From NCBI GenBank assembly GCA_000004985.1, contig GG738893.1: a DNA stretch of 64,000 bases; one strand, given 5' to 3'. Positions within the stretch are counted from its first letter, which is position 1. Every line of letters begins with the position of its first letter. Shown piece after piece: positions 1 to 53,206 of the stretch. The position numbers were made by a program, and so were the translations under genes. The notes beneath the pieces were generated by a model. It was not told the origin of the DNA, made no database searches, and worked only from the letters and a program-made list of their open reading frames with translations. This stretch comes from Naegleria gruberi. Lineage: Eukaryota.

Positions 1-450
1 AACCCAAACCCAAACCCAAACCCAAACCCAAACCCAAACCCAAACCCAAACCCAAACCCAAACCCAAAACCCAAACCCAAACCCAAACCCAAACCCAAAC
101 CCAAACCCAAACCCAAACCCAAACCCAAACCCAAACCCAAACCCAAACCCAAACCCAAACCCAACCCAAACCCAAACCCAAACCCAAACCCAAACCCAAA
201 CCCAAACCCAACCCAAACCCAAACCCAAACCCAAACCCAAACCCAAACCCAAACCCAAACCCAAACCCAAACCCAAACCCAAACCCAAACCCAAACCCAA
301 ACCCAAACCCAAACCCAAACCCAAACCCAAACCCAAACCCAAACCCAAACCCAAACCCAAACCCAAACCCAAACCCAAACCCAAACCCAAACCCAAACCC
401 AAACCCAAACCCAAACCCAAACCCAAACCCAAACCCAAACCCAAACCCAA
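1..450. repeat. Terminal telomeric repeat array, about 74 copies of AACCCA on the + strand (C-strand; G-strand unit TTTGGG/TGGGTT), with a few variant units (CCCAAAA near 61-70, CCCAA near 165 and 210)
   Basis: Seen directly: a perfect hexamer tandem array starts at base 1 and runs to about 450. The C-rich strand running 5'->3' into the chromosome is the orientation expected for a left chromosome end. Confidence 0.92.
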
Positions 451-451
451 C

Positions 452-469
452 TTTGAAATTTTCAACTTT
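452..469. repeat. Subtelomeric motif TTTGAAATTTTCAACTTT abutting the telomere array; a near-identical second copy lies at 1176-1194
   Basis: Two copies of an 18-19-mer (TTTGAAAT[A]TTTCAACTTT) about 700 bp apart, the first immediately after the last telomeric hexamer. It contains the palindromic core GAAATTTTC. Confidence 0.5.
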
Positions 470-800
470 GTCAACCCAAGGTAGGTTCAACCCATAGGGT
501 CACTTTAGGACTCAACTATCTCGGGAACGGCGAATTAAAAAAATTAGTATTTTCTATCATTTCTTTCAAAACTCATATAGATTGATATTTGAGTGAATCA
601 TAACCCGGAACGTTCTCGTCGCAGAGATAATAGATATACTAGGAATTTTTGAGTTGACCATTTTTGATTATCTCAATAACTACTGGGAGTTTTTTCACGT
701 GTATTACAGAATAGATAGATAAATGTATATAGTAATACATATATAAGAACTGGATAGCCAATATTAGCCGTTCGTTTTATGTGATTAGGTTTTCGCCATA

Positions 801-838
801 CCCAAACCCAAACCCAAACCTTCAAACCCTAGCCCAAA
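801..838. repeat. Interstitial degenerate telomere-like repeat (CCCAAA x3.5, then CCTTCAAACCCTAGCCCAAAAT)
   Basis: Seen directly about 350 bp internal to the terminal array, in the same orientation as the telomere. Confidence 0.65.
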
Positions 839-1492
839 ATTATAAACTTATTCAAATATCATTAAATTTTATATCATTCGATCGGAAATGATGAGTAGAA
901 CAACGTAGTATATTTAGTTTTTCAATTTATAAAATATTAACTTTGTAAATAATGTCAGATTAAAATTTGTAAAATGATACCATAGGAAGAAAGTTAATTT
1001 CAAAATCCTTTAATGAGATTATATAGTGTATATCACCATTAACAACATCTATAATCACTCTCATATCAAATTTCAATAGTTCATGTCTGTNNNNNNNNNN
1101 NNNNNNNNNNNNNNNNNNNNNNNNNNNNNNNNNNNNNNNNAGTTTTACAGACCGCTTCAAGATATCGACGTTTAATTTGAAATATTTCAACTTTCACCAC
1201 TATTTGTGTTAATTTAGATCTCAACTAACAAACATGAAGTTGCAAATGGGTGGATAAGATCCACCGGTTGTGTGTTAGATTGGAATCTTTTCAAAGTCCA
1301 TTGGTTTCTAGTCATTCAATTCAACCAACAATTAAAAAATGTGTCAACAACAACCTTCTCAATCTAATGATGCAAAATGGAAGACAATTATTGATGGACT
1401 AGTGAATGGAAGCTTAACGTATGTTATTGAAAAATTACAGTCAACTTATTAAATAATTAATTCACTTCATTAGATTTGAACAATTTATAGAA

Positions 1493-7109: not shown

Positions 7110-8227
7110 GTACAAATGCTGGTTCTCTTACTTTAATTGATTCCAGTAATTCACTTGTTCAAGGTAATTGTGTCAATGGTATTGATGGAGCAAATGATAT
7201 TTTTGGTCAATTCGCCTCATGCAATGGAAAGCAATTTTTTGAAGCTGTCCAAACATCAATCAGTCAAATTATTAAGGAAAAGGCAACCAATGATCCTGGT
7301 TCCTTCTTTAATCCACCAGTTCCAGCACTTGGCACTGCACTTGATGGAAAATCATGTATGACTGTCAGAGATTTTGGTATTGTTGACATGGATCAATCAG
7401 ATAACGTTGTTACATCCTATATCATTAGTACAAACAAGACATTGGCAGGTAGAACTTGTCAAAATACTGCAGCTAATTTGAAAGCCCTTGGAGGAACTGC
7501 TCAAACCCAAACATTGGTAAATGGTTCTGATAATAGATTGTTAGCTGTTGCAATGGCACGTGCTCTAAATTGCACTCCATACATGGCCCCTGATTTGGCC
7601 AATAATGGTCAATTGACTCAGTCATTGGCATTGGACGAGATTCATGCTAAATTGAAACAAAAAGCACCGATTGCTCTTCTTCCAAAAGGAAATCCAATGG
7701 TAAGAAGCAATGATCAAGCAAACCTTGAAAAACTCAACTTGTACAGAGCTGCTGTTTTTCAACCACAAGTTTCCAGTGTTGCATTTGCTTCCACTCGTCT
7801 CTATTGTAAACATTACGCAGTTGTGGCACCTGCCAGAATATTCCTCGACAAGTCTATCACTTTGAAATATGCAAGTCCTGACACTGGAGTTGCCAATAAT
7901 TTATTCACATTCCTAGCTCAGAGATTTGTGAATAGTTGGGAAGGATTGAAATGTGGTTGCATTCTCGATATGCCTTGTCCAATTTCTATTGTTGTGGATA
8001 AGAATGGAGTAACTACAGATGCTAGTTTATCCACAATGATGGCTAGATCTGTAAATGTTGATTCTTTGATGGATCAAATGGTTTTGGAATTTGATGGCTA
8101 CATGGATGAAAACAATACATTGGATGTAAGAGCTCTAGTTAGTGAGTCAAATAGTGTTTTTACCAACAATGGTCCTGTGTATATTCTTCTTACCATTGTT
8201 GTGTCTATCATGTTCAATCTTTTGTAA
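7110..8227 (+). CDS. C-terminal portion (about 370 aa) of a large, probably extracellular Cys-containing protein with a C-terminal hydrophobic tail (GPVYILLTIVVSIMFNLL), GPI-anchor or TM-like. The 5' part is lost in the gap
   Basis: Long open frame emerging from the gap and ending at the TAA at 8225-8227. Composition is typical of a secreted or surface protein. No recognisable catalytic motif. Confidence 0.5.
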
Positions 8228-8324
8228 ATAAAATTCATTGTCAATACTTTCTCTCTTTTAAATAATTAAGAAATGGCTGTAAGGCCGAAATAATGATTAG
8301 TGTGACCAATTATCCTTAATAACT

Positions 8325-8397
8325 GCCCGTCTAGCTCATTCGGTAGAGCGCAAGGCTCTTAACCTTGTGGTCGTGGGTTCGACCCCCACGGTGGGCG
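8325..8397 (+). tRNA. tRNA-Lys, anticodon CTT (CUU), 73 nt
   Basis: GCCCGTCTAGCTCATTCGGTAGAGCGCAAGGCTCTTAACCTTGTGGTCGTGGGTTCGACCCCCACGGTGGGCG folds as a canonical cloverleaf. The acceptor stem is 7 bp with two G-T pairs. The anticodon stem is CAAGG/CCTTG with loop CTCTTAA. The T-arm is GTGGG-TTCGACC-CCCAC. It is near-identical to metazoan tRNA-Lys(CUU). A downstream T-run (TTTTTA, 8404-8409) serves as the Pol III terminator. Confidence 0.93.
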
Positions 8398-8425
8398 ATT
8401 CATGTTTTTATTTATTCATGGTTGA

Positions 8426-8472: not shown

Positions 8473-9250
8473 GACGTAATTGGACTGGCTACAAGATGTG
8501 AAATAATTAGATTAATTAAAATACTTTTATCCCGAGATCTAGAACTTTGGAAACTTTTCGTCTACTTTCTCATTTTTATTGTGTTCACCTTCTTTTTTGC
8601 TAAATTCAGATTGCAAAAGTTTCAAAAATGGAATATTTACAAATGACCATCCAACAATATTTCTTCAAAATCTGAACTATTCCCACTCATTCTCTGCAAT
8701 TTCTTTCAAATATTTCATAAGGTATTGAATTCATCCTCATTGATTGACACACTGAATCAGAATGGTAAAATGAAAAGGCCTTTCGCCAAAGAAATCGACC
8801 TCCAACACTAAAAAGCACTTGAAAGCGACACAATGCAATAGTAATCCTTGCAATACGAAACCCCTAAGGTTCATTTCCCACAAGCACAACAAGGCAAATG
8901 AGAATAGTTTGCTTGGTGCTGTGTGTGAAAATCGTCATCCAAAAAAACCAAATAACACACCACTTTGCTTGAATATGAACACCCACTCAACAAACAATCA
9001 AAATTTTACACCAAATAATAGTGTAGTAGTAGTAGTTGAAGAAGATGATACTACTCACACCATTGTTGTTGATGGTTTGTGGTGTTTTTCTGTTAAAGGC
9101 AATGACCACCACGTTGCGATTCAAAAGGTAGAAAGTATAAAATTTGCTACACCAATGACAGAAAGCGATTTTGGCAACAAGTTTGATGGAGGTAATGAAC
9201 AATCGAGCGCCTCCAAGTATTGATACTGCGAGTAGATTATTGATGGACGA

Positions 9251-19169: not shown

Positions 19170-19736
19170 TTGGAAAAAATTATTGAATATTATATTATTG
19201 AAAAGGGAATTAATGTTGAAGGATTATATACCAACTATTCCCATAAACAATATATTACTAGAATATCATTTGATAATGAGAAAACGTGCTCTGAACTTGC
19301 TTCAGCTCTTGATTTACAACACTATAAAACAGTAGAGCAAATCAGAAGTGAAACAAAAGAGACAACATCTCAATGCACATTCCCTATTCAATTTACTGAT
19401 AACGAGATTACAAATGGAATTGCTCGTGTTTACTCTAGAATGGATATTCAACTTGTATTGAACAATTTAAAAATATCAGATGCAACTAATCACTCTGGTA
19501 CTTCAAAATATAAATTAGTTAAATTATCACACACAGATAAGGATGAAATGGATGAATTTTGTAAGAAAAATATTTCTCTTATTGATAAGCACAAAAACCA
19601 TTTCAATTTCTATTTCAAACCTTCTATTGAGATTTTAGATCTTAAAATAGAACAGAAAAATAGATTATTTCCTTATTTACCTACTATTAATTCTACTAAT
19701 AATATTGCAACAACTAAATCAGTTGCTAAAACAACA

Positions 19737-19769
<33 letters not shown>

Positions 19770-20012
19770 AAGAATAATAATAATAATATTAATAATAATA
19801 ATAATAATGAAAATAATCTGTTAATATTACTCACCAAAGCTTTTTCAAGCCTTGTTGTAGGATTGGCAAATAATAATGTAATTCCATTAGATAATAACTT
19901 AATGGAAATTGTCAATATTACTAATAATATAAATAATGTAAATAATACTAACTCTGTAATGATAGATGATGATTTGATTTCAACATCATCTAATGAATCT
20001 ACTCAACCTTGA
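19170..20012 (+). CDS. Retrotransposon ORF1 (280 aa, Asn-rich; probably 5'-truncated or degenerate since there is no ATG before residue 90)
   Basis: ORF track. The frame is open upstream to 19014 without an ATG. The ORF ends with TGA overlapping the ORF2 start. Confidence 0.55.
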
Positions 20013-23000
20013 GTGGAACTACCACTAGTTTAAGACTTGCATGCTACAATGTTAACGGTCTATACAAGCATGCAGTCCATAAATCTGTAACTCAAGAATT
20101 GAAATCTATGTGTTTAACACATGGAGTTCATATGATGAGTATTACAGAAACACACGTTAACACTACTGAATTAGAAATTAAAGTTAGAAATTCTGGTTCA
20201 GGTTATTTATTATTTAACTCCCTTATGGGTCGATCTAAAGGCTGTAAAGGAACAGCAGTTATGCACTTTTTAAATAATCATAGAAAGCGTAACATTACCA
20301 ATAATAATTTAGTACCTGGAATCTTACAATGGACAAGATTTGAAAGCAGGGGAATTCCAATTAATTTATTTACTATTTATTTAAGTGGCAGATCAGATGA
20401 TTATGAAAATGATCAAGAAGCCATTAACAGTTTTATCAATGCTGTTTTAACATGTAAAGATGAACATATTATTTTAAGTGGGGATCTTAATATTGATACT
20501 CAAAACCCCACTACTACAAGAGAAAAGGATTGGATTTGGATTCTTGAAATGTTAAAATTGACAGAATTCAAAACACCAAATTATACATGGATTAGACGAA
20601 GTCAGGGAACTTTAATTAGATCTAGACCTGACCATATCTTTGTCTCAAAGAATATTAGAGTGGTAAAGGAAGTAATTATGACACCTTTGACCACTAATGA
20701 TCATGTCCCTTTTTATTTAGATTTAGAATTTAAATCTAATCTTACTTGGAGAACTTACTTTAGTAAGAATAAGAGGAAAAGAATGTACGAAGCAATTAAT
20801 AAGTGTAAAATTGACAATTTTCAAGAGCTGAATCAAGCAATTGAGGCTCAAATAATTAAATATGGATCCAAAGTAGATAGATTAGGAGTTGGAAGAATTT
20901 CTACAGCATTTAAAGAAGAAATTCAAGATTTAGAGGATGAAATATTATCTAAAATTAATAACCCTAATATTCCTCAATCAGAAATACAAGAACTACAAAC
21001 ACTCCTAAAAGAAACACATATTAATAATGCAAAAGAGATTAAGGAAAAACTTATAGATGAATTTAATGATAACTCTTCATCTAGAATGTATCAATTTGAT
21101 AAAATGATACACTCTAACCAAATTATGTGGAAAGACCTTAACTTTGAAGAAGAAGAAATAGTGGATTACTTTACAAACAAATTTACCTCCACTAATCAAC
21201 AACCAACATTCACACCAAGTAATTCAACTATCAAAGAAGGTCCAGATTGGAGCAATTCGATTCATATTAAAGAGCTACAAGATGCTCTCAAACGAATGAA
21301 ATCAAACACTTCTGGGCCTGATCTAATCTCACTTGATATAATTAAACATCTTACAGAAGCTAATCAAGGAATCCTCTTAGAAGAATATAATAGATGTTTA
21401 AGAGATGGTGATATTCCACAAAATTGGAAACAAGGATGGGTAAAACTCATTCCTAAAAGAGAAATTAATACCTTAAGTGATATTCGCCCAATTACTATTT
21501 TACCAATATTTTACAGAATATTATTTAATATTATAGCATTTAGATTGAGATCTTGGGCATCAACTCATATTAATGTTAGACAACAAGCATTTATTACAGA
21601 CAGAAATACTTTGAATCATGGTGTATTACTCTCTGCCTTAGCAATGAAAACAAGGAAAAGGACTTTTATTTTAGTGAATTTAGATATAGAAGGGGCGTAT
21701 GATGCAGTCGAATTACCTGTCATCAAAATGGCCCTAGACCACTGCAAATACCCTTCAGAACTTACTCAATTCATTTTAAATGCTTATGCTAACCATGAAC
21801 TTCAATTAGAAATTGATAATCATCTCTCTGATAAATTTAAGAAAACAAGAGGAATACCACAAGGCTGTCCACTGGCCCCTCTTATTTACGATTGTATTAC
21901 CCAATTAATAATTGACAAAGCAATTGATAAGTGGAAGATACCAATCAAACCAGGCAAACTATGTGCAAATGATATTGCACTCTGCTGTTTTGCTGATGAT
22001 ATGAATGTTGTATGTGACAGATATGCCAAATATAATGAGAGACTAGACAATATTCATGATTGGTTACATCAATTATTATTTAAATTGAATGCTAAGAAAT
22101 CAGTAGCAACTCTATTACCTAAAAAGAGCACAGTCTCACCTAAAATCAAAGGTACTCCAGTACCTAAACAGAAAAACCTTAGAGTACTTGGCCATTACCC
22201 TTGGGATGATACTTTGGTAACACAAGACATCCAATCCAAGATAGACAAATTCACAAAATCATTAAGATTTTTACCATTATTCAAATTACAACCAACAAAC
22301 CTTAAAATAATTATGCATGCTAAAGCAATCAGCTTATTCACCCACCTCTCAAAAATCAATATAATCCCTTTAAAGAAAGCTCAGGAAATAGATCGTGCAA
22401 TTAGAGGTGCAATCAGACGTAAATTATTAATGGACAGAGCAACTCCAACAAGTTTCTTTCACCTGCCATTAGAAGAAGGTGGATTACCATCAATTGAGGA
22501 ATTCTCTGAAAGAATGAATTTAAGAACTATGAATTTAATCGCCAATAATAAGAATAAGTTAATAAGAAAAGCTTGTGAGGAAACTAAAGATAATATTTAT
22601 GCTAAATGGTTATCTGTACTTAAAGAATATAATCTCACATTTGTGCAGAATGATACGAAATTTAGAATAGCCAAAATTAAAACAGGAAATAGTTTCGATA
22701 TCCATACAGATGGATCTAGAATTAATCAAAAGACAGGAATGGGTATTAATATTTATGATACCTCAAATAGATCAGTTCCTTGTAAAACTTTATCCCTCGA
22801 ATCAATGATCATTATTCAAATAATATAGCCGAAATATGCTCCATAATAACTTCTATTAATGTAATCCCACGAAACTCTAAAGTTACCATTCATACTGATA
22901 GTGAAGTTGCAATAGAAGTTCTCAAAGATAGATACAAAGGAGATTTTCTAACATTAAAAGAAGCCTTCTTTAGAACAATCAAAAATAGAAAAATAGAATA

Positions 23001-23667
23001 TGAAATTAAGAAAGTTGAAGCACACAAAGATAGCGAGAATATCAAGGTTGATTTAATAGCAAAGAATGCTACAACCAGAGATGATATTTTTGATATTTGT
23101 AATTTACTCAAGAATCAACACCTCCTTGTTAAGGATGGTGTTGTCATCTTCAATCATAAGAAGATGACCATAACAAGACATTTAAGTGTAAGACATAATA
23201 AGATGAATGAAAACCCTAACTTTATTCTAAACCAAAGTTGGGATTCTCTTAATGTGCAATACCTTAAAACTCGTCTTACTCCTAAAACTAAATACTTTAT
23301 ATGGAGAAATTCCATCAATGCCCATATCAATTTTGGTAAGGGTAAAAGTTTCTGTTACGATTGTGGTACAGAATCTGATTTATTCCATTACATTCATGAG
23401 TGCCCTGGCTTGGATAGTGCCAGGTATTTTTGTCAGTCAAAGATATCTGATATTCTTGAAGGGAGAGAGTGCTTACTTTCTCATTTTCAATTCAAACCAG
23501 AAAAGCATCACCATGCATTACATTTCCATCATAACGGAATCACCTCTTTCGAAGATGGATACATGCAATTCCATAAAGACATCGCTAAGAAGTGGCCAGA
23601 GATCCAAGGTGCCATTTCTAACTTCGTCGGCCGTTCCTATTCTAACTATTATATTGACTCCAAATAA
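20009..23667 (+). CDS. Retrotransposon ORF2: APE endonuclease, reverse transcriptase, RNase H and a Cys/His zinc-binding domain. One frameshift near 22800 splits it into 20009-22828 and a continuation in another frame to 23667
   Basis: The RNase H motif is interrupted: ...IHTDGSRINQKTGMGINIYD...KTLSLE sits in one frame and NDHYSNNIAEICSIITSINVIPRNSKVTIHTDSEVA... in the frame shared with ORF 23164-23667. Confidence 0.8.
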
Positions 23668-23909
23668 TTTATATAACCTATGAGAATCTGAATAGATTCG
23701 TTATTGTCGTAATAAAAGATTTTTTTACGAGCAATGGATTGGAGTTTTTACCGATTTTTTCCTGCAATGCAGGTTTTTTATAGGAGTTGTTCTACTTCAA
23801 TCTCGATTTTGTAAACAACTTTATTAACTCGGGTTCTCTTCCAATCCGTGGTGTTCCGTTTGGTTAAAACAATGTTGTGAAATTCAATCAATCTAACAAC
23901 TACAATTGT

Positions 23910-33671: not shown

Positions 33672-33714
33672 CATTATTTCAGTTGTTTTTGTTGAAATAT
33701 TAAAATGTTAAAAA

Positions 33715-33832
33715 GACTACAGCACCACAGGTTCCCAAGTTGTCTCCAACCTCAGTACTGATGTGGCTCGACGATGCTTAACTTCTCAAATCGGACGGGA
33801 TGAGGTGCATTCATCGTGATATGGCCGTAGCC
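33715..33832 (-). rRNA. 5S ribosomal RNA gene, 118 nt, with a TTTTT Pol III terminator immediately 3'
   Basis: Minus-strand sequence GGCTACGGCCATATCACGATGAATGCACCTCATCCCGTCCGATTTGAGAAGTTAAGCATCGTCGAGCCACATCAGTACTGAGGTTGGAGACAACTTGGGAACCTGTGGTGCTGTAGTC. It carries the universal 5S blocks ACGGCCATA, CCCGTCCGAT.TGAGAAGTTAAGC, AGTACT..GGTTGGAGACAAC, TGGGAA and GGTGCTGTAG. Helix I 5'/3' complementarity is present. The GGTTGGAGACAAC block matches the Dictyostelium-type 5S. Confidence 0.9.
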
Positions 33833-35125: not shown

Positions 35126-35348
35126 TTTCTCCACTACAAATTATCAAAGCAAATAAAGCAATTCAATTTTGGAAGTCCCAACAATTCTTAAACGTAAATT
35201 GATAGCTTTACTGGTAGGCGGGGAGATACCACAACCTCTCAAATAACATCAAACACGAGATATTTACAAATGTGCATCACGTAACTGACACAGTTTGTAA
35301 TCATGCGAGCAATTACCTCAAATCTTGTCAATCCAAACATTTAAAAAA

Positions 35349-38300
35349 ATGAATATGAGCGAAGTAGGTGGCTCTGTAATAGCAGAGTCTGCTATTGAGT
35401 CTCAAATTAATAGAAATTCAGTTGTCAAGCAGGCCAACAACAAATTTACCTCAATGGTGCTATCTCTTCAGGTCAATACACCAAGAATTGGATGGAAATG
35501 GTACTTGATTTCATTGGCATGTATGATTATACAGTTGTGGAGCACCATTTTGCTTCCAACCTTGAATCAAACTTGGGGTTCGACTTCTAAACTGATTTTT
35601 GACATTCTGAATGTGCCTAATACATTCTTTGTACATTATTTAACTCATGACCAAGCAATAATAATTGCATACATTTGCGTTGGTTTTGTATTCCTTTGCA
35701 TAGCCATTGCATGTGCTTGTATTTGGTCCATCACAAATGCCACTAAGCACATCACCAAATTCAAATATCTATTATTTGTATTCGCCTCAATAGCTCAAAC
35801 GTTTTCCATATTTCTCCTTTTCAATTTTGTTGGTTTCTATGATTGCAGTATTACCAATATCAATGAAGATACATTAGAGAGGACGCTTTCTAGATTTCCC
35901 TCCAATTCATGTTTTAGTGATACAATTATTATTGCACTTTGCATAGCTGGTTCATGTGCTTTATTTGTATTGGTAATTCTCTCTCGATTGATTTCTCATG
36001 ATTTGCATCCTTTGAGCAATACTCCATTTGTTTCAATGACTCCAAAATTGATGGTCATGATGGATTTCGTTAATTTGTTTACAATGATTTTGTTATTTGT
36101 CATACCTCAACCTTATCTTTTCGTGACAAATGCCATTAATATGATCGCTTCATTAGCCATGATGATTGTTCATGGTAAATCTTGTCATTTTTTCAAACGA
36201 ATGGACAATTCATTATTTATGGGAGTATTGGCAGCAAGATTTGGAACTAGTTTGGGAAGTTTTGTAAATTCCTTAATTACCACACCCCTAATCAATATGC
36301 CAAATTCTGAGTCTTTCTCCCTTTATATTGGTTTTTCTACTACTATTGGTTTGGCTCTGATGTTTGCACTTATTGGATTTGTTGCTATTGAAATTTATAC
36401 AAGAATTGTTGTTAAATTAATTAGAGACATGACATTGACTGATTTCCTAGGTTTAATTCATTCTAATCAACCTCTAAATATTCACAAATCAAAGAAAGCA
36501 ATTATGAACTATATGGAAACCAAAGCGCAAATCTACATTCAAACATTCAAGTTGAAAAATACTCTACATCAATTGACAATGTTTTTCAGATTTGCCAACA
36601 AGTCAACTTATGAAATTTATAGTGGAGTTCAAGGTGATGATGGGTTGGATATTTATTTGAGTGATAAAGATCTCTCTCTAATTTATTTGAAAACTCTGTA
36701 CAATAGAAAATCAAGAGAAATTGACTTGTTGTACAATTTATCAACTCTAATGGCTTACGACCATTTTGGAGACGACGAATGTCATACACCGAAAGCTTTG
36801 CAAGTAATGAACAGAGTGTGCAAAAAATCAAGTTTTTGGAATCACTTGGATTATCATTATAGAGCTAAGGAAATTCAACAGTATGCAACTGACACTGGTA
36901 CAGCAGATGCAAGTCAAGAGAATGATGCAAAAATGTTACTACTCAAGGAGAATCAAGATAAGTTGTTATGCTTACACAGAGACTTCTGGAAAGAAATGAT
37001 CAATGAACCAGTCAAGCTGTCAAGTGTTCAGAAAATTTGTGAAAAGATATCCGATATTTCAGAAGAATGCGAAGAAACATTTATGGAAGCACTTTCAGAT
37101 CGTAAAAACAAAGCCTATCTAAGAATGTATGCAACCTATGTTGAATTATTCCATTTTGATAAGGATCTAGCTCAAGCAATTCACATGGAAGCTAATCAAC
37201 TCGACCAAGAAATGAAAGTTACTCAAAGCATTAACAAAATCAAAAAGAAGCAAGTAGTACCTAGTGCTTCTAGATCTTCTTTAAAATCCCTGTTCAGATC
37301 AAGAACCAGAATTAGAGAATCAATGACTGACCAAATGAGCGACGCAGGATCAGACGTTTCAAATCAAATTCCAAATGGGTTTACTGAACATTTTGACCAA
37401 TTTGATGATAGTGCAAGTGTTGCAGGTGATAATAATGCTCCTGAAGCTGCGGAACAAAAGAAGGATTACTTATTTAGAAATGCTTTGAAAGCTAGACGTC
37501 CAGAAGGTGTCAAGTATTTATTGTATTTCTTATTTTTGTTTTGTTGCGTTGCCATTATGACAGGTGGTTTGGTCATGTCAATAATCAATAGTTCCAAAAT
37601 TAAGCAAAATATCATTAATTTGAAAGATGTCTGTATTCCACAAACAGCTCCTCTTTCAATTATTAGAAATGTAAGAAATATGCAAAATTGGATTTATGTA
37701 TTCTTTGTGAAAAAGTATGGATGGCCTTCGAGCTTTGGAACCACAGCCACTGTTTCAAAAACCGTAAGTATCTCTTAAAGAATTCTGAATATTAAATGAA
37801 ATAGGAGTTCATGTCATACTTTAAGGAAAGGCTAGATAAAGACAAAGATGGTCTGTTAAGTTTGCTTGTATTGGGACAGGATATTCAATTTGATTTTGAA
37901 ACTTATACTCAATATGGTAAATCAATGTACCAAACCTACATTCCTAGCTCTTCTACGACTGGTACAAACTTAACATTTAATACCAAAGTATATATAGGAG
38001 AACCAGAATTGAGAAATGTCTCAGTTGTTGAAATTACCAACTCTATCATCAAATATCTCGATCTTATCAAAGACGATGATTTTCCACAAGCAGAATTAGA
38101 AAAGTTGCAAGAAATGGACCTAAACTCTGCTGCTGCCCAACAAGTTATTGATTCTATTCTTTCAAAACCGTTCATGTTTCCAATTTCCAATTACAATTTC
38201 ATGTATTTATGGTTGAACAAGTTTGGAATTACACACATCTATGAAGATTTTTGTAATGCCTACGTTGAAAGAAGCAAGAAATCTACTGTTACATTGATGG

Positions 38301-40715
38301 CTGGTTCAGAATACTATTTTTATGCAACTATTGGTTTGATGATCGTAATTGGATTGCTTCTTATCGCTTATATTCAATACGATTTATTATTCTTTAAAAG
38401 ATTAGTCAAATTAATTGAAAAGGAGCTGAACAAGGATGGTATTGGAAAAATTTATCAACAATTGAATAAGAAAACTTCTATGGAAGCTTCCTTAGATTCT
38501 AATATTGTTAGCAAATCACTTCATGCAAATGCTAGTTTAGTAATTGCAATTGCATTGCTTGCTGTGTTTATTCCATTATGTATTGGAATGTTATACTTGG
38601 AAACATACAAGAACGCAAAGAGTGCTCTATTTACTTTCACCAATGTTGGATTATCTTCAAATGTAATTGAACATTTACAGTTTGCTTCATTTTATTTGGG
38701 AGAAATTCTTACACTTTTTGGTGTAGCTCACTTATCCAATAACGATGCCAGATTGTTCAATAGCAAATTGTCAAGTGGAAATTTTGAACAAATTTACAAA
38801 TCATTGAGATATGAAACTGATTTTACTGCAGCAAATTAGTAAGTAGTTTTGGAATTTTAACAATTTACTAGAATCAATGTTCAGCCAAGAATTGATATAC
38901 GGAGATGTTACTAAACCTGATGATGATCCAGTAATTGGTTTGTATCCATCTTTGGATAAGCTACTCAAACAAGGAGTTGATAATTGTACTCTTTATTTAG
39001 AACAGCATAATTTAACTCTCACACTCAAAACGAAAATTCAGTACTGTACAGGAATTGATAAAGTAATGACTGATTTCCTAACTACCATTACACAGACCAG
39101 TGAGAATACTCGAGATTTCTATACAAAACAAAATGCTGTATTTGCTGCTAATGGAACAATTTTAGATCCAACTGAAATATTTATGGAACATTACAAGTTA
39201 AATGTAATGTCTCATCCTCTGAATGACAAACTATTGATATTCATGAATGAATTTGTTAGAGTCTCTTCAGAACTATCACTAATATTACTTTTAATATTTA
39301 CTTGTTTAGGATTTTTACTCACAGCAGTCATTGGAAGACTCATATTGGCAATGATCAAGAACAAATCAAATCAACTCTACCACACCAGAATGCTAATGAA
39401 CTATATTCCAGTAGAAATGTTAGATAGAAATGAAAAACTCAAAAATGTTGCATTATTTAACTCTTTCCCTAATGCACTAGTTGAAAAGTTGAATAGAAAA
39501 GGAAAAGAGGGTTCATCTGAAAGTGGATTTAATGGCGTTGCGAATATTATCAATTCTTCAGTTGATGGATCTGCTTTGTTAAATGAAAGTGGAGATATTG
39601 AGATTTTCAACCCAGCAGCACATCGAATGTTTAATTCAACTTCAGTCGATGTATTGGGTACAAAGCTTTGTTCTTTATTTGAGGAATCGATTCAGGAAAC
39701 TATTAGAAAGACATTTGAATCCATAATAGAGCAATCTAAGAAATCTTATAATTCTGGAGGAAATGGACTCGCTCAGGAAACATTAGAAGCTGAATGTATG
39801 AGAAGAAATCAAACTAAATTCCCTGCCAAGATTAGTCTATTCACTACTCATCTTTCAGATCGTGGAACTATTGTTGTTTGTACCATTAAGGATGTGACCT
39901 CAGAGAAGAAACAACAAGCTCTCCTTGCGGACGAAAAGAAACACTCTGATAATCTACTCAAAAACATTCTTCCAGAAAATGTCGCTTCAAGACTAAAGAA
40001 GGGAGAAACATTCATTGCTGAAAAACTTTCTGATATTACATGTTTCTTCTCAGATATGGTTGGTTTCACAAAAATCAGCTCAACCATGCAAGCTACTGAA
40101 TTGGTGAAAATGTTAAATGCAGTAGTTAATGGATTTGACAATTTGACAGAGCTTTATGACCTGGAAAAGATTAAAACCATTGGAGATGCTTACTTTTGTG
40201 TAGGTGGTCTTCATGGTTCTTCAGATCACCCAGAAAGAATGTTAAAATTTGCCATGTCAACCTTCCAAGTCATTAACGATTTTAATTCTGGAAAATTTGG
40301 AGTCATTCTAGAAAATGATAATCAACTCGATATCAGAATTGGTATCAACACAGGTTCTGCTCTTGCAGGTGTGATTGGAACCAAGAAATTTGCCTACGAT
40401 TTGTGGGGTGATACCATCAATACTGCCTCAAGAATGGAATCAACTGGTCAACCAGGAAGAGTTCAAATAAGCAGATCAACCTACGAAAGAGTTTATGATA
40501 TGGGATTGGAATTTGAGGAGAAACGAGTGGAAGTAAAAGGAAAGGGAATTATGCAAAGTTATTTATTGAGTGCACGTCATCACATAAGCACCAAGGTTGA
40601 CTTGATTATTCCAATCGAACAGAAAACACTCCAAGATTATGAAATTGACAATGAACCTTTAGAACAATTAAAACTAGATAATAACACATCGTCAAGTCAA
40701 AACTCAATGGAATAA
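35349..40715 (+). CDS. Large polytopic membrane receptor with a PAS-like domain and a C-terminal class III nucleotidyl (adenylyl/guanylyl) cyclase catalytic domain, about 1760 aa. Exons are 35349-37763, (37805 or 37826)-38838 and 38885-40715
   Basis: Intron 1 has donor GTAAGT at 37764 and an acceptor at 37804 (41-nt intron) or 37825 (62-nt intron); both preserve the frame. Intron 2 is 38839-38884 (46 nt): TA|GTAAGT...TTCAG|C restores the TAC codon. The N-terminus has many TM helices, and further TM helices occur in exons 2 and 3. The PAS-like stretch is GDIEIFNPAAHRMFNS.... The cyclase motifs are FFSDMVGFT, KTIGDAYFCVGG and GINTGSALAGVIGTKKFAYDLWGDTINTASRMESTG. Confidence 0.75.
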
Positions 40716-45926: not shown

Positions 45927-46376
45927 ATGTCAAACACCAACCAAACAAAAAGTAATAGGTCGAAAGCCCAAAGTAACTGGAACCAAGCCATGCTAGAGAG
46001 CTCGATAAATTCCAGCCGGCTGATAATATGGAAAGTGGCCAAAGATAAAACTATCAAATCCACACAGGAGAGAAAATCCATCAAGAAACAAAAGACGAAA
46101 GTGACTGTCGATGGAATTGTGAGGAATCGAATGATTTCTGATAGAGAGATTATGCAAGTTTTACATTTACCACAAATGCAAGCATGTAAAATATTGAATT
46201 GTAGTTTATCCACTTTGAAAAGAAGATTTTACGAATTGAAAGATGGTTTTGGATTAGACAGATGGCCCAATAATTTGCTTGTTGCCAGACATTTGCCAAT
46301 TTTCAAAAAGATTTATCCAATGTCTTTGGACTTTATTCTGAATCATGACGACGAAACATCTACCACTTCTCAATAA
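45927..46376 (+). CDS. Small RWP-RK-like domain protein, copy 1 (149 aa)
   Basis: C-terminal ISDREIMQVLHLPQMQACKILNCSLSTLKRRFYELKDGFGLDRWPNN...HLPIFKKIYPMSLDFILN. It aligns to the RWP-RK core (AAK.LGV..TTLKR.CR..GI.RWP) with the RK dipeptide replaced. Confidence 0.75.
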   Translation: MSNTNQTKSNRSKAQSNWNQAMLESSINSSRLIIWKVAKDKTIKSTQERKSIKKQKTKVTVDGIVRNRMISDREIMQVLHLPQMQACKILNCSLSTLKRRFYELKDGFGLDRWPNNLLVARHLPIFKKIYPMSLDFILNHDDETSTTSQ

Positions 46377-46468
46377 AATCATCTACTAATTTCTAACTGA
46401 ATTTCGAACTAGAATACATGTTTATTTTCAAACAAATATTAGAAAGTCAAATGGATGACAGAGAATCT

Positions 46469-47680
46469 CTAACTAAGAATATCACCAACAGCTTTATAAC
46501 AATAAAATTCATATTTCAAAAACTCAAACGAGCCATCTCTTATTCCCAACGCCAAACAACTCGAATTAATTTCCTCTCCATCAGTCACTCCTCTATAATG
46601 CAACTCTTCCTTCATGAAACAAGTATAAACATGATTGAATTGTTGATTCTTGAGCAACTTTTCAAATTCCACTTCAACGCCATCGTGAGCTGTTTGATGT
46701 GGACAGCAATCAGCAATATTTGAATGGAATGATAATTGATGAGGAGCAGAATATTCAGAATGCAAATAGATCAGTAAATTGAAAAGTGCTTCCTTTGCAA
46801 AATTAACTTTCAAAACTCCAGATTTGTGACAATTAACTACAAAATCATTAATCCATTGATTGAAATTTTGAGTAATTTCGTTTGGAACTTGTTTTTCAAT
46901 TTCAACATCAACTTCATTGTAATCAAAATCATCAAAACCTGTAACAATGTGTGAGGAATCAATGAAATCTAACTTGAAAGAAGTTATCTTTCTGATATTT
47001 CTAACAATATCATGTTGATAAGTTCCAAAAAAATCATTCGATTCTACATAAACTCTACAACTTTCATTGTAATAAATCTTTTCCAAATCCTTTACAATTT
47101 TTTCATCAATTTTTTCAACAATTCCATTGATTAAGAAATGATTCTTGAAAGAGGTTGGACTTTCTTCTTTCTTTTCATTCGAAACATGACTAATCAGAAG
47201 TGGAAAGAATAAGAAATCTTCATAACTAAACCGAAAACGTTTCTGACACCAAATCAGCTCCATATCCATTCCAATTAATTTAGCCAACTCGTAAATTACA
47301 CCTTTGGCCTTCAATTGCTTTGGAACTTGATCAAAATTTTGTGGTTTTTCAAGTAAAATTTTGCCAAATGTCAAAACATTTTTCTTCATTGGACGTCCTA
47401 CTTCAAACTCGAATAACTTCTCAGTTAGACAAGATTCAATAGAATAATAAGCTTTTGATAGATAGTATAGCATGGAAACCTCATGAATATTGATAGGTTT
47501 CGGAAAATCTTGTTCGAAATCTTTCACAATTGGCTGAAGGAAAATATTTAAATTTTGTTCGATCAGGAATTTCCATTCCTTGTTCACGAGAGTGAATTTT
47601 AGGATATCTTTCAGGGTGGAATAGTCGAATAGGATGGAGAGGAAGGTGTCGATGTGGTGTGTGAGCGGATGTTGTGTCAT
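46469..47680 (-). CDS. Hypothetical protein with an F-box-like N-terminus (403 aa)
   Basis: ATG at 47680. N-terminal FLSILFDYSTLKDILKFTLVNKEWKFLI. No other recognised domain. Confidence 0.45.
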   Translation of the reverse strand: MTQHPLTHHIDTFLSILFDYSTLKDILKFTLVNKEWKFLIEQNLNIFLQPIVKDFEQDFPKPINIHEVSMLYYLSKAYYSIESCLTEKLFEFEVGRPMKKNVLTFGKILLEKPQNFDQVPKQLKAKGVIYELAKLIGMDMELIWCQKRFRFSYEDFLFFPLLISHVSNEKKEESPTSFKNHFLINGIVEKIDEKIVKDLEKIYYNESCRVYVESNDFFGTYQHDIVRNIRKITSFKLDFIDSSHIVTGFDDFDYNEVDVEIEKQVPNEITQNFNQWINDFVVNCHKSGVLKVNFAKEALFNLLIYLHSEYSAPHQLSFHSNIADCCPHQTAHDGVEVEFEKLLKNQQFNHVYTCFMKEELHYRGVTDGEEINSSCLALGIRDGSFEFLKYEFYCYKAVGDILS

Positions 47681-47761
47681 TTGCTATTTTTTTAGTTTCG
47701 AATAAAGTTTTATTTTTAATGAAAGTGTGAAACAGTGTTACATTCGGCTAAATTGAAAAGT

Positions 47762-49066
47762 TTACAATTTGATAATATCAGATTCTAAAATTTTCTTATA
47801 TCCTCCAACAGTTTGTTGTGAACTTTCACTATTCGAATCTTTTGATAATTGTGAAATTGGATTTTCCGTCTTTTCAAAAACAAATGTCGTGTACAACTTG
47901 ACAACTGTCCAAAAATCCTCATTCATATCTCGAACATTTAATCTTGGACGACTATTCTCAGTTTCTCTATTATTTCTGTATTTTTCATAAAAATCATAAA
48001 AATTCAAATTCTCAACCAATGAAAGATTGAATTCCTTGGCCATTTCTATAAATATTTGAGGGTTGACTAGATATTCAGGACATGGATCGACGGCATCTTC
48101 CAATTGGAATGTATAGCAATTTCCAAATGGTTCCTCAAATGATTTGTCATCAGAACATTGAAAATTAGCTTGAAATACTGAATTTTTCAATGTCTTTCCC
48201 TCAACTTTCTTTAACATGCTTTGTAAAACGTTGGAATCAAGTGTGGTGACGATGAATTTGCCTCCCTTCTTCAATCTACTGGTGGCATTTTGCAATGCAG
48301 TTTTAACATGTTCCTTACTTTGAAAAAAGTAGTGGAAGGCAAATTGACATGAAACTGTATCAAATTCCACATTGGAATCAAGTGCACTTTCAATTGACAC
48401 TTTCCCAACATCTGCATGAATTAATTTGGCAGGAAACTTCAAATCTCTTCCTCCATTATATCTTTCACTCAAACTCACCAATGAATTGAATGAAATATCA
48501 ACTCCTACATAATTCTTAATATTTCTAAAACTGAATTTGAATAAATCACCTCCCTTTCCACAACACAAATCCAAAACAGTGCACTCATTCGGAACATATT
48601 TGTAAATCAAAACTCCTTTCAGCCAATTATTAAAATCCTTAATTGGTTTAATTGGTGAATTGTTTCTTTCTTCCCTCGATTGATTCTTCCTCTGATCATA
48701 CATCTCCTCCGGTGTAAATGTTCTATTATTGTAATTCCTATTATTACTATCACGATGATGATAATTACGATTATTGTTGTTATTATTATTGTAATATCTA
48801 TTATTATTATTATTATTTGAATGATAACGTTCTTGTTGTTTATATTGTTTTTGAATTCCTCTTGATTCTCTATTATATGATGATGATGATGAATTATCAT
48901 CTCTATCATTCATTCTCCTATTATTATTATTGTTATTATTATTTTGATGATGATGAGAATTGGAAACATGATCATTCCGATATTCTCTTCTCCTCTCTGT
49001 ATTGTTATTGTTGTTGTTGTTGTTGTTATTACTGTGATGATGAGAGGCTGAGTCTTGTGCTGGCAT
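47762..49066 (-). CDS. mRNA cap guanine-N7 methyltransferase (ABD1/RNMT family) with an Asn/Arg-rich low-complexity N-terminus
   Basis: SAM-binding motif VLDLCCGKGGDLFKF, followed by YVGVDIS, FDTVSCQFAFHYFF and GGKFIVTTLDSNVL. The N-terminal 120 aa are encoded by AAT/AAC microsatellite-like repeats. Confidence 0.8.
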   Translation of the reverse strand: MPAQDSASHHHSNNNNNNNNNNTERRREYRNDHVSNSHHHQNNNNNNNNRRMNDRDDNSSSSSYNRESRGIQKQYKQQERYHSNNNNNNRYYNNNNNNNRNYHHRDSNNRNYNNRTFTPEEMYDQRKNQSREERNNSPIKPIKDFNNWLKGVLIYKYVPNECTVLDLCCGKGGDLFKFSFRNIKNYVGVDISFNSLVSLSERYNGGRDLKFPAKLIHADVGKVSIESALDSNVEFDTVSCQFAFHYFFQSKEHVKTALQNATSRLKKGGKFIVTTLDSNVLQSMLKKVEGKTLKNSVFQANFQCSDDKSFEEPFGNCYTFQLEDAVDPCPEYLVNPQIFIEMAKEFNLSLVENLNFYDFYEKYRNNRETENSRPRLNVRDMNEDFWTVVKLYTTFVFEKTENPISQLSKDSNSESSQQTVGGYKKILESDIIKL

Positions 49067-49160
49067 TTTTTTTTAAATTGTTTGAACAAATATTATAAAG
49101 ATATTTAGGATAATTTTAAATCATGTAATATCATGTAATAACAACACTACAAAATATTAA

Positions 49161-50039
49161 AATTAAGGTGGCACTGTAGCTGACAATAAAAGGAAATTCG
49201 GTAAAAATTTTTGGTTAATTATTTTTTACAATTCTTGCTGAATGACGAAGTAATTTATTAAAGTTTGAGAGGTTCTCCTACACTCTCCTACAAATTTGGA
49301 GACTTGGTTAGAAGACAGCATCTTCTCTTATATGTGAATAGTTTATCCCTACTTTACTTTGCTTTACTTTTCACTCTCTTTAGAATAAATAATGAAATCC
49401 CAACATGATCCGATTGTTCTTCATCATCGTAACGGTAAAAAAATTAAAGTTTTAACCTTCTCCTACACTCCAGTAACAAAATTAAACATTGCAAAAAACA
49501 AGATATGGTCTAGATGTGTTGTTATGTTTGTACCAACTTTACTTTGCCTTCTTATTGTGTTTCCGTATTGAAAATAAGCAACTAAAAGTACTATCAAAAC
49601 CAATTAATTTTATTTTCGGATGTTCTACAAATTTTAAATGAAATTGCATCACGAAGTTCTCAACCATCAGATAGGATTCAACTGTTTCTGTAGCATGCAA
49701 AAGAGAATATTCTAAGAACAATACTGAATGTGTATGTAGATCACTGGTGTGGAAATTATGACAAGTGCTATGGAGAAAAAACAAGATGCTTGTTGTAAAA
49801 TTGACGAAAGAAGTGCATAGTTTCAGAAACACAATCAACAGAAATTAATTTCCGAAAAAGAAAGAAGAAGAAAATAGATCATGGTGTTTCATGTTCATGT
49901 ACTGCAAAAGTTGTCCTTGTAAATCAGCTCGTGTGTTGTGTGGCAATGATTGTCACAAAGGACAAACAAGATGTAAACTGTTTCGACTTGTTATTTTTTT
50001 TAAAATTTTGGTGAACAATGAACAATAGTGCCACCTTAA
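49161..50039. repeat. Pair of 13-nt inverted repeats (TTAAGGTGGCACT ... AGTGCCACCTTAA) about 860 bp apart, MITE/TIR-like
   Basis: Seen directly. The outer TA or TTAA could be a target-site duplication. The interior has only a short non-conserved ORF. Chance occurrence is not excluded. Confidence 0.3.
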
Positions 50040-50312
50040 GACATTATTCTTGGATAATTTTTCGAAACACACGAAAGAAAAGAATAAATGTTGAATGGAT
50101 TACCTGAAGCAGCCAATAATTTTATTGTTCATATTTGTTAGGTTGCATTTCCTTTTAGAGCGAATTGAGCTGAAAAAACGTGTTGTGGGTTCCTGGTTCA
50201 AGAAACCGTTTTGACGGCTGTGGCAGCTGACACGCGTTATTTTGATGTTGGCGTTTAAATCGTCATCAACAACATGCTGATTATTAAATAATAATAATTA
50301 TTGTTAATAATA

Positions 50313-50789
50313 TTAGTCTTCGTTGAGAATGAATTGAAGGCTCATTGGATAAAGTTTGTTAAATATTGGCAAGTGACGTATTTCAAAAAAGTATTGTGGC
50401 CATCTCTCTAATCCAAATCCATCCTTCAATTCGTAAAATCTTCGTTTCAGAGTAGATAAACTACAATCTAATTGTTTACATGCTTGAATTTGGGACAAGT
50501 GCAATACCTGTAACATTTCCTTCTCAGAAATTATTCTATTTCGTCTTGGTTTTGAAATTTTAGTTTCAACAAAATGTGAAGAACCATTAGAGGATATCTT
50601 TCTCCAACATGTAGTCATGAATTGAGCAGAACCAGAGCCATTAGTATTTGTCTTTCTTGTATCAACTTGAAAGGATGAAGAATTCAATTTCTTGTTTTTG
50701 TCTGAAGATGACCCAGAAGATGAACTTGACAAGTCAGAACTCTTGAAATTTGCCGTGCTAGTTGACTGACATGGGGTGGTTGAATGCAT
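50313..50789 (-). CDS. Small RWP-RK-like domain protein, copy 2 (158 aa)
   Basis: ISEKEMLQVLHLSQIQACKQLDCSLSTLKRRFYELKDGFGLERWPQYFFEIRHLPIFNKLYPMSLQFILNED. The N-terminus is Ser-rich. Confidence 0.75.
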   Translation of the reverse strand: MHSTTPCQSTSTANFKSSDLSSSSSGSSSDKNKKLNSSSFQVDTRKTNTNGSGSAQFMTTCWRKISSNGSSHFVETKISKPRRNRIISEKEMLQVLHLSQIQACKQLDCSLSTLKRRFYELKDGFGLERWPQYFFEIRHLPIFNKLYPMSLQFILNED

Positions 50790-51894
50790 TTTGATTTTGT
50801 GTTGTTGGTTTTTTTTGTGTTTTGATAATTTCTTCTTCTACACACAGCGTGTCTTTCCAAATTATGAAGCAGGAAGGCAACAATGAAGTGTCACACAAAT
50901 AACTGTCACATCTTCTACAACAGTAGAGCCTTCCTTTTAGAGAACCTATCCATGAAATTTGGAATTTTAACAAAGGCAACGAAATGAGATAAGCATGTTC
51001 GTGTGGTTTTCTTTGGGTAAGTGTTGAATTTAAACTCTCCTTTTAGGCCAACCAATCACTTGTGTTGACACTATTTGGGTTTTGATACGTTTTGATTTGG
51101 GCCTTGCTTGGCCACAAGTCCCTTATGGACCAATAACACTCATCTATTCTAGTACATTTAGGTAAATGTTAATATATTTAATGTTCAGAGCTGTTGTGAG
51201 AAGTTTTCTTCTTGTTTTTGTCGTTACCAAATGTACTCGGTAAATCATGATAGTGCCAAAATTACTCTGTAGAGAGGTGTTATTTCAACTGTTGAGATGA
51301 TTGTGTATTAGCAATATCAATTGTTCTTATCACTGATGAGAGTTCGGATGCATCTCCCGCATCAACAGAACTCCCTTTTCTCCCAACAAAATAGATTTAG
51401 CCATGGTAAATAAGAATCAGAATGTAATCAGGCTAAAAAACACTATTCTCACACCTTCGGCAATGAACTTTGCTCTTCTTGCCTTTTAAATTTGCTCTCA
51501 AAATCTTTACTATTTTCAAGCCTTCATAATGATCAAGACAACAACACGAAACCGTTCTCTATGCAATAATACATATATGTGTTCAAGAGAGAAATCAATA
51601 CAAAGGTTTTGAGGCTTTTTTATTAAGAATTTACAGTTTTCTTGGCGCCAAAAATTTTACTTTTAAATTAAACGTTTGAAAAAAATGGTGCGATGAATGA
51701 GAAGGAATTTTTGATCAAAATTCACGAAGGAGAAGTGCCATAGAGTTTGGTGTGAGATGATTGAATATGGGAGGTTTTATTTGATTTGATGCATTAATTT
51801 GAATAGCTGATCTATGATAATTATTTACAAGTGTATTAATAATTATTAGTAATTATTAATAATCAAAACATGAGTAAACATCATGATAATTTTT

Positions 51895-52473
51895 CTAATT
51901 GTTGAGAAGTTGTGGTTTTACATTTTCATCAGTTTGAATATTTGTGCTTTTGCTTCTGTACTCTGGATCGGCATATTTGAGCAAATTTAAAGTGGAACTA
52001 TTCAACTTTCTTGCTGGCTTTGAAATCCTATTGTTTGGTTTCAAGCTTTTCAGAACAAGTTGATGAGGACTGGAAGATTTCTTGATGAGGATTGGCTGGG
52101 TATTTAGTCTTGTGCTTATTAGAATTGGATTGGCTCTGTTAATGATTGTCCCATCATTAACATTATGTGTATTATTACTATTATTAAAGAAATCAATATG
52201 GCCCATCAACAGGTTCGTTTCATCTTGGAGAGGAGTTTGAATTGGATAATGCATTGCTAAATTATCGGAATGATGATATTGATCTCCTTCTTGTCCAAAT
52301 ACTTCATGTGCTTGTGGTGTTTGTTCTTGTGGAAAATATTCAACAACAATTTCTTCAACCTCTGATGAAGACAATGAATCTCTCGACCTGTTCATCACTA
52401 AAACACGTGTTGTATTTTTCTTTGGAAATGAAAACGATTGTTGACGGGCGCTAAAATACCAACAATCTTTCAA
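51895..52473 (-). CDS. Hypothetical Asn/Ser-rich protein (ORF only)
   Basis: ORF track only, with no motif recognised. It sits between two RWP-RK copies. Confidence 0.25.
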   Translation of the reverse strand: MKDCWYFSARQQSFSFPKKNTTRVLVMNRSRDSLSSSEVEEIVVEYFPQEQTPQAHEVFGQEGDQYHHSDNLAMHYPIQTPLQDETNLLMGHIDFFNNSNNTHNVNDGTIINRANPILISTRLNTQPILIKKSSSPHQLVLKSLKPNNRISKPARKLNSSTLNLLKYADPEYRSKSTNIQTDENVKPQLLNN

Positions 52474-52573
52474 TATGATTTAAAATAACAATATTTTTTG
52501 TTCCTACCCAAAAAAAGGTAAATTTGCTGTTGTCATAGAATGGAATGGAAATGGATTAATAGGTCGAATCTAT

Positions 52574-53206
52574 CTATTCCTCATCACTGTTGAGAATGAA
52601 TTGTAAATTCATTGGATAAATCTTTTTGAAAATTGGCAAGTGACGAATTTCAAAGAAATATTGAGGCCATCTTTCCAATCCAAAACCATCCTTCAATTCA
52701 TAGAATCTTCTCTTGAGTGTGGAAAGACTGCAATTAAGTTGTTTGCATGCCTTTTGTTGTGATAAATGCAAAACTCCAAGAATTTCCTTTTCAGAGATGA
52801 CTCTCTTCTTTTCCACTGAATTGAATGAATTCGTTTCCACAATATAATTAGCAAAAGTTGATGATGTGCATCTCCATTTGGTGATGGTAGGTGTTGTATT
52901 ATTAGATGAACCAACAGTAGGTAAGTTTCTATTACTGACATGTTGCCAAACATTTGCACTTAGATTCGATGCAGAGCTGCTGCTCTTAGGAGATCCACTG
53001 CTAACACTGCTCATACATGCATTATTGCTTCTAACACATTGTTGTGAATGAGAAGGATATTGAAATGTCTGATCTACCACATGCATGCCTTTCTGAACTA
53101 TCACATGTTTAGATATGCTCATTGCTGGCTGTTGTTCCAGCACAATGGTCAGCTTGTTTCCTGACATTTTCTTACTCTTTCCAATCTTGTTATTATTGCT
53201 ATTCAT
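52574..53206 (-). CDS. Small RWP-RK-like domain protein, copy 3 (210 aa)
   Basis: VISEKEILGVLHLSQQKACKQLNCSLSTLKRRFYELKDGFGLERWPQYFFEIRHLPIFKKIYPMNLQFILNSDEE. ATG at 53206. Confidence 0.75.
   Translation of the reverse strand: MNSNNNKIGKSKKMSGNKLTIVLEQQPAMSISKHVIVQKGMHVVDQTFQYPSHSQQCVRSNNACMSSVSSGSPKSSSSASNLSANVWQHVSNRNLPTVGSSNNTTPTITKWRCTSSTFANYIVETNSFNSVEKKRVISEKEILGVLHLSQQKACKQLNCSLSTLKRRFYELKDGFGLERWPQYFFEIRHLPIFKKIYPMNLQFILNSDEE

Follow-up and report, generated by a model that had tools for sequence, protein, structure and literature searches.

Interstitial telomere tracts are found at the boundaries of subtelomeric blocks, as at the X/Y′ junctions of yeast and in the human subtelomeric duplicons. 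A counterpart to the chromosome end described here is known from the ciliate Paramecium, whose telomeres, made by telomerase, are a mixture of TTGGGG and TTTGGG; the TTTGGG units, interspersed with TTGGGG, arise there by misincorporation or stuttering on a TTGGGG-type template (PMC13085455; PMC5855555). The closest described system is Naegleria gruberi itself. In a search for telomere-type minisatellites in 143 genome assemblies (Fulneckova et al, 2013, Genome Biol Evol; PMC3622300), TTTGGG was proposed as a convincing candidate for the N. gruberi telomere on the basis of its terminal position on scaffolds and its orientation. That proposal was made in silico only, and its authors stated that the terminal position still requires experimental confirmation. 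Searching the later literature on Naegleria telomeres, TERT, telomerase RNA and subtelomeres, we found nothing beyond this 2013 in silico report.

Here, we analysed a stretch of 64,000 nucleotides from one end of a scaffold of the N. gruberi assembly (hereafter the window), that is, the same species, the same repeat and the same public assembly as in the 2013 report. A preliminary description, made from the letters alone, had implied a dictyostelid context for this end and had taken TTTGGG as a clue to lineage. The dictyostelid context is contradicted by the encoded proteins, which are 100% identical to predicted proteins of N. gruberi (Heterolobosea); for instance, a 612-aa ORF at 38.9–40.7 Kbp is 100% identical to an N. 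gruberi predicted protein encoded on a 337,165-bp scaffold, the next matches being from Naegleria fowleri and Acrasis kona. Nor does the repeat provide fresh information, since it had already been reported as the candidate telomere of this species (PMC3622300). The main outcome of our analysis is thus a correction of lineage: TTTGGG fits the N. gruberi reference genome, for which it has been a published candidate since 2013.

The window shares the TTTGGG hexamer with the macronuclear and micronuclear telomeres of Paramecium, but CCCCAA has 0 occurrences in the whole window and the host, which uses the standard genetic code, belongs to the Heterolobosea and not to the ciliates. As the array contains no TTGGGG, it is not a mixed telomere of the Paramecium type. 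Dictyostelium discoideum is, like N. gruberi, an amoeba with an AT-rich genome (the GC content of the window is about 0.31–0.36 outside gaps), but it belongs to a different supergroup and, unlike its rDNA-derived caps, the end described here carries a simple telomerase-type repeat. Rfam searches detected no rRNA near the chromosome end, the sole rRNA match in the window being a 5S gene at 33.7 Kbp.

While the TTTGGG telomere of N. gruberi is already known, the subtelomeric details given below are new, as small annotations: the main text of the 2013 report (PMC3622300) does not give the anatomy of individual ends, to which a telomere-like tract at 801–838 and a duplicated block of genes are small additions. 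An interstitial tract 349 bp inside the array, a scaffold gap that is probably larger than it is written and the duplicated block with its two orphan genes may be useful for finishing the N. gruberi genome and for the study of heterolobosean chromosome ends.

The terminal array and the sequence that adjoins it

Positions 1–451 of the window form a period-6 array of 75.2 copies with 98% matches (TRF score 877). Parsed as A+C+ units, the array consists of 71 perfect AAACCC units together with one AAAACCC (at 66) and two AACCC (at 163 and 210); its first unit is truncated, and it finishes with a terminal AAC at the inner end. It thus reads as C-rich (CCCAAA)n on the plus strand, and the minus strand, which is the G-strand, bears one T4G3 and two T2G3 variants. 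Because CCCAAA runs inward on the plus strand from base 1, TTTGGG runs 5′ to 3′ outward on the minus strand, toward the terminus. The array therefore has the attributes of a telomerase-type repeat, a short G/T-rich tandem unit located at the sequence end with its G-strand pointing 5′ to 3′ to the terminus. The preliminary description had reported a chromosome end capped by a telomere of the TTTGGG type, opening with about 74 perfect AACCCA units. The array reaches base 1 in the orientation of a left-end telomere. The end, of a chromosome or at least of the scaffold, and its repeat are confirmed, with a slightly lower count of 71 perfect units and three length variants. Note that 451 bp is a lower bound fixed by the assembly and not the true telomere length. 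A vector or phage origin of positions 1–1090 was also considered, and no such similarity was found.

The array is homogeneous, and its junction with unique sequence at 451/452 is abrupt. It is directly adjoined by an 18-mer on the plus strand, TTTGAAATTTTCAACTTT (452–469), which recurs on the same strand as a 19-mer, TTTGAAATATTTCAACTTT, at 1176–1194; as previously noted, the two copies differ by one inserted A. The 18-mer contains a near-palindrome, TTGAAA/TTTCAA, and the palindrome of the pair can be written TTTGAAAT(A)TTTCAA. The pair is the best local match between 452–1090 and 1141–2007, with a score that was reached in 16 of 300 shuffles (5%). For this specific 18-mer taken alone, a recurrence with at most one edit within the following 1.5 Kbp is an event seen for 0.1–0.2% of the real 18-mers of the window. 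The 18/19-mer pair is thus marginally beyond chance. We found no case for an extended homology around it, the next-best block, the 15-mer TTTAGGACTCAACTA, being equalled by 8% of real-sequence controls. A junction-specific pattern, telomere followed by the 18-mer, gave 0 matches in metagenome contigs. Just inside the junction, two TCAACCCA octamers are present on the plus strand at 472–479 and 488–495 (472–495 overall), 16 bp apart. The same octamer occurs once in the other 45 Kbp, counting both strands, and we read these two copies as putative telomere-like vestiges.

A second telomere-like tract lies further inside. It is detected by TRF at 796–838 (6.8 copies, 76% matches) and was delimited to 801–838 on the minus strand, oriented like the terminal array. 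It is composed of three perfect CCCAAA units in its distal part (801–818), followed by a degenerate proximal part, CCTTCAAACCCTAGCCCAAA (819–838). By arithmetic from base composition, the chance expectation of (CCCAAA)3 in the window is ~5e-7, and no run of two or more telomere units was found in the remaining window sequence outside 1–451 and 801–838. Both the terminal array and the 801–838 tract are clearly beyond chance. The preliminary description had indicated a degenerate tract of the same orientation ~350 bp inside the array; this is correct, the spacer (452–800) measuring 349 bp. The polarity of the tract, perfect distally and decayed proximally, may be read as that expected for the base of a former terminal array.

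The 349-bp spacer is an AT-rich, non-telomeric segment bracketed by these two telomere tracts, and the sequences that follow the two tracts are not alike. We detected no ORF with a family match in 452–800 and no second copy of this segment in the window or in the 138 compared loci, among the matches listed. The larger interval 452–1090 likewise gave no copy in the rest of the window or among the compared loci, and its short ORFs have no match on record. Self-comparison of the window gave no repeats touching the first 20 Kbp. The arrangement resembles the X/Y′ junctions of yeast and the human duplicons in that a degenerate tract in telomere orientation parts a distal segment from duplicated proximal sequence (see below). 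Unlike yeast Y′, the 349-bp segment carries no ORF or helicase and is single copy among the sequences compared.

The scaffold gap and the duplicated genes beyond it

Proximal to these features, the scaffold is interrupted by a gap of 50 N (1091–1140), unmentioned in the preliminary description, which parts the two copies of the 18/19-mer onto different contigs. A further 13.1 Kbp of N lies within 2–19 Kbp, including a 5.1-Kbp gap that starts at 2008, and the first 19 Kbp comprise 13.2 Kbp of N in all. Through a 100-aa ENA metagenome protein belonging to the cluster of the first gene's product, we found a 1546-bp ENA metagenome contig of N. gruberi-like DNA (L138; ERZ929261, run ERR1078381), which matches 1141–2007 of the window with 98.4% identity, a block that also includes the second copy of the 18/19-mer. 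L138 extends this block on either side with sequence that the reference scaffold lacks. Its positions 1454–1546 reach 93 bp into the 5.1-Kbp gap, and its positions 1–585, which lie immediately distal of window position 1141, have no match in 452–1090 or in the rest of the window. These data suggest either that the gap at 1091–1140 hides at least 585 bp or that the telomere contig was joined by scaffolding alone. In both cases, the 1.3-Kbp layout and the 725-bp spacing between the two motif copies do not represent physical distances. The "1.3-kb" subtelomere of the preliminary description is thus not retained as a unit, its 452/1176 spacing being unreliable with the copies on different contigs across the gap.

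The first gene, NAEGRDRAFT_71758 (EFC40257.1), encodes 144 aa on the plus strand at 1339–1828. Our hand-spliced model has two exons, 1339–1418 and 1474–1828, separated by a 55-nt GT-AG intron, and gives a product 100% identical to EFC40257.1 over its full length. No Pfam match was obtained for this protein, which is an orphan: among 5.8 billion clusters, it was found in N. gruberi only. Its C-terminus, KRKIGRPRKRPKKK, looks like an AT-hook DNA-binding motif. A scaffold of 695,587 bp carries a paralog with 93% identity, NAEGRDRAFT_64160 (EFC47836).

The second gene, NAEGRDRAFT_71759 (EFC40258.1, modelled at 7358–8227), is represented by its 3′ part on the plus strand at 7112–8227, its 5′ end being lost in the gap. 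Over the shared region, it is ~99% identical to both NAEGRDRAFT_46878 (EFC47834), on the same 695,587-bp scaffold, and NAEGRDRAFT_76143 (EFC36166), on a 79,899-bp scaffold. This family, without a Pfam match, has three near-identical (~99%) copies in N. gruberi of about 490–500 aa. A hydrophobic N-terminus is seen in both full-length paralogs (EFC47834 and EFC36166), and a hydrophobic C-terminal tail in the window copy EFC40258 and in EFC36166; the family may represent secreted or surface proteins encoded in duplicated, probably subtelomeric DNA.

The duplication is not restricted to single genes. Further along the plus strand, the last ~40 residues of an ORF at 8975–9223 match the spliced C-terminus of EFC47834, which indicates that the duplicated block extends to at least 9.2 Kbp. 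From the chromosome end, the accessions follow in the order EFC40257 (1339–1828), EFC40258 (7358–8227) and EFC40259 (19440–20012); on the 695,587-bp scaffold, the accession numbers of the paralogs, EFC47836 and EFC47834, differ by two, and the two genes follow in the reverse order. The block is thus duplicated from at least 1.3 to 9.2 Kbp (about 8 Kbp or more) and is near-identical and multi-gene. No paralog with at least 90% identity was found for the product of EFC40259 (19.4–20.0 Kbp). It had been anticipated that the subtelomere would recur elsewhere; this holds for the block of about 8 Kbp or more that contains the first two genes, while 452–1090 gave no copy in the sequences compared. 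The other copies of the block, on the 695,587-bp and 79,899-bp scaffolds, are probably subtelomeric as well, and a duplicated block of this sort is what recombining subtelomeres ordinarily show in eukaryotes. The presence of near-identical copies would also explain the large assembly gaps in the first 19 Kbp. We also observed a tRNA-Lys(CTT) gene on the plus strand (8324–8398) inside the block, between the main ORF of the second gene and the downstream exon of the paralog's model.

Origin of the chromosome end

The explanation that we favor, with high confidence, is that the window begins with a true nuclear chromosome end of N. gruberi, made up of a telomerase-type telomere, an interstitial tract that would be the remaining base of an older telomere and, further in, a subtelomere that is duplicated. 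Telomerase would add TTTGGG to the 3′ end of the window's minus strand, and the occasional TTGGG and TTTTGGG units would come from slippage on the T run, or from read errors. The abrupt 451/452 junction is what would be expected from de novo telomere addition or from continual homogenisation; truncation followed by healing, which the preliminary description had put forward, may offer a reasonable account of this sharp terminal junction. The 801–838 tract would be an earlier telomere base, internalised by the arrival, on its distal side, of ~350 bp of non-telomeric DNA and of a new telomere. This could have occurred by capture of a fragment at a critically short end and subsequent healing, or through break-induced copying with another end as the source.

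A first alternative concerns the 50-N gap: contig 1–1090 may not be native next to 1141 onward, and could instead terminate a different copy of the block or be a chimeric assembly of reads. With block copies that are 93–99% identical, mate-pair placement is ambiguous and the telomere could have been attached to the wrong copy, and the distal 585 bp of L138 are unlike anything in 452–1090. A gap simply longer than 50 bp accounts for L138 equally well, however, and L138, a metagenome contig, might be a chimera or represent another strain. Moreover, a misplaced contig would still be a telomere-bearing N. gruberi contig, given that its repeat matches the published candidate. We thus consider an assembly artefact unlikely, while keeping it seriously in mind. 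Another doubt bears on the array itself, which could belong to a CCCAAA satellite inside the chromosome, the assembly having ended there by chance. We scanned other sequence collections for (CCCAAA)6 or longer and compared 136 contigs, at least 120 from metagenomes and 16 from IMG/VR. Such arrays are internal in 101 of the 136 loci, among the matches listed, as the satellite reading would have it, and the caution of the 2013 authors about terminal position also speaks for it (PMC3622300). Nevertheless, those arrays that lie ≤30 bases from a contig end are biased 27:8, among the matches listed, toward the telomeric orientation; 13 of these 27 share a single project of origin, JAESGV01, and do not count as independent. 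This bias suggests that TTTGGG acts as a telomere in other organisms too. In the window, the array reaches the first base in telomeric orientation, stays homogeneous up to an abrupt inner junction and has a degenerate tract of the same orientation nearby, and the 2013 report judged the N. gruberi pattern convincing on both position and orientation. An internal satellite appears to us extremely improbable.

The remaining alternatives keep the chromosome end and ascribe a different nature to the sequence just inside it. The 349-bp segment and its tract could form a telomere-associated module, mobile or recombining, that would resemble yeast Y′, be present at several N. gruberi ends and have spread by recombination between telomere tracts, with the 18/19-mer serving as a functional junction or binding motif. 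Such a module would account for the two telomere tracts of the same orientation that bound 452–800, for the recurrence at 1176, with one indel, of the very 18-mer that adjoins the array (nominally a 0.1–0.2% event), and for the duplication elsewhere in the genome of the sequence next to this end. It would also predict further copies, but no second copy of 452–800 was found in the window or the 138 loci, among the matches listed, which leaves the module unsupported, and the junction-specific pattern had 0 matches in metagenome contigs. In addition, the sequences after the two tracts are dissimilar and, when any match between the segments is allowed, 5% of shuffles do as well as the 18/19-mer; the flanking 15-mer is equalled in 8% of real-sequence controls. 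A module of this kind is therefore quite improbable, and the earlier proposal of a modular 1.3-Kbp repeat carrying its own telomere seed is not borne out, the sequences beyond the tracts being unlike and 452–1090 uncopied in the window and the compared loci. More speculatively still, the 349-bp segment, its flanking tract and the palindromic 18/19-mer might constitute a Naegleria-specific module spread by recombination between telomere tracts and perhaps bound by the AT-hook-like protein of the duplicated first gene. We regard this as a long shot; if true, the N. gruberi module would be a Y′-like system for end maintenance or end marking in a deep-branching eukaryote. By comparison, a former telomere base at 801–838, next to an ordinary duplicated subtelomere, remains our preferred reading of this end.

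CCCAAA arrays in other collections and further features of the window

None of the 136 contigs from the scan, among the matches listed, has non-telomeric similarity to 452–2007 or contains the 19-mer within 2 edits. In the JAESGV01 project, 13 contigs (L006, L028, L030, L041, L053, L076, L077, L081, L082, L083, L101, L114 and L119) end in TTTGGG arrays of 26–106 bp in telomeric orientation, with sharp and mutually unrelated junctions. In one of them, L083, a Ty3-like LTR element directly adjoins the array, and the contig also contains two PPR-DYW genes that lack introns. A homology search for the JAESGV01 contigs returned only the query itself and distant plant PPRs, and ORF lengths were ambiguous between the standard and the ciliate genetic code. 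From their sequences, the JAESGV01 contigs appear to come from one or several eukaryotes with TTTGGG telomeres. Two other contigs start with 10–17 CCCAAA units, L063 (LUMJ01000369.1; array at 5–64) and L094 (Ga0181533_1016788; array at 1–108). They look prokaryote-like by eye, from their ORF translations only (tRNA-synthetase-like and NFACT-like for L063, integrase-like for L094), and could be chimeric assemblies or something else. Five giant-virus GVMAG contigs from IMG/VR (L122, L126, L131, L135 and L136) contain at least 6 CCCAAA units each; that of L136, situated 30 bases from a contig end, has the non-telomeric orientation.

Immediately beyond the last large gap, the window contains the frameshifted remnant of a non-LTR, LINE-like retrotransposon on the plus strand (19170–23700). 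It comprises an ORF1-like protein of 190 aa (EFC40259.1), then an ORF of 906–939 aa with endonuclease and RVT_1 domains and an RNase H-like stretch out of frame; the element is oriented with its 3′ end on the side opposite to the telomere. The 5S rRNA gene is located on the minus strand at 33714–33832 (105 bits). A cluster of at least four small paralogous RWP-RK ORFs extends over 45927–54308 and about 60770–60992; these ORFs have in common a segment of ~220 bp, found in five copies (46.1, 50.3, 52.6, 53.9 and 60.8 Kbp) with 72–78% DNA identity. Finally, a PAS/adenylate-guanylate cyclase gene is present on the plus strand at 35325–40715 (1061 aa in the NCBI model), and a second cyclase-domain ORF on the minus strand at 61901–62353, in which 220 bp (62076–62295) are 77% identical to 40330–40549.
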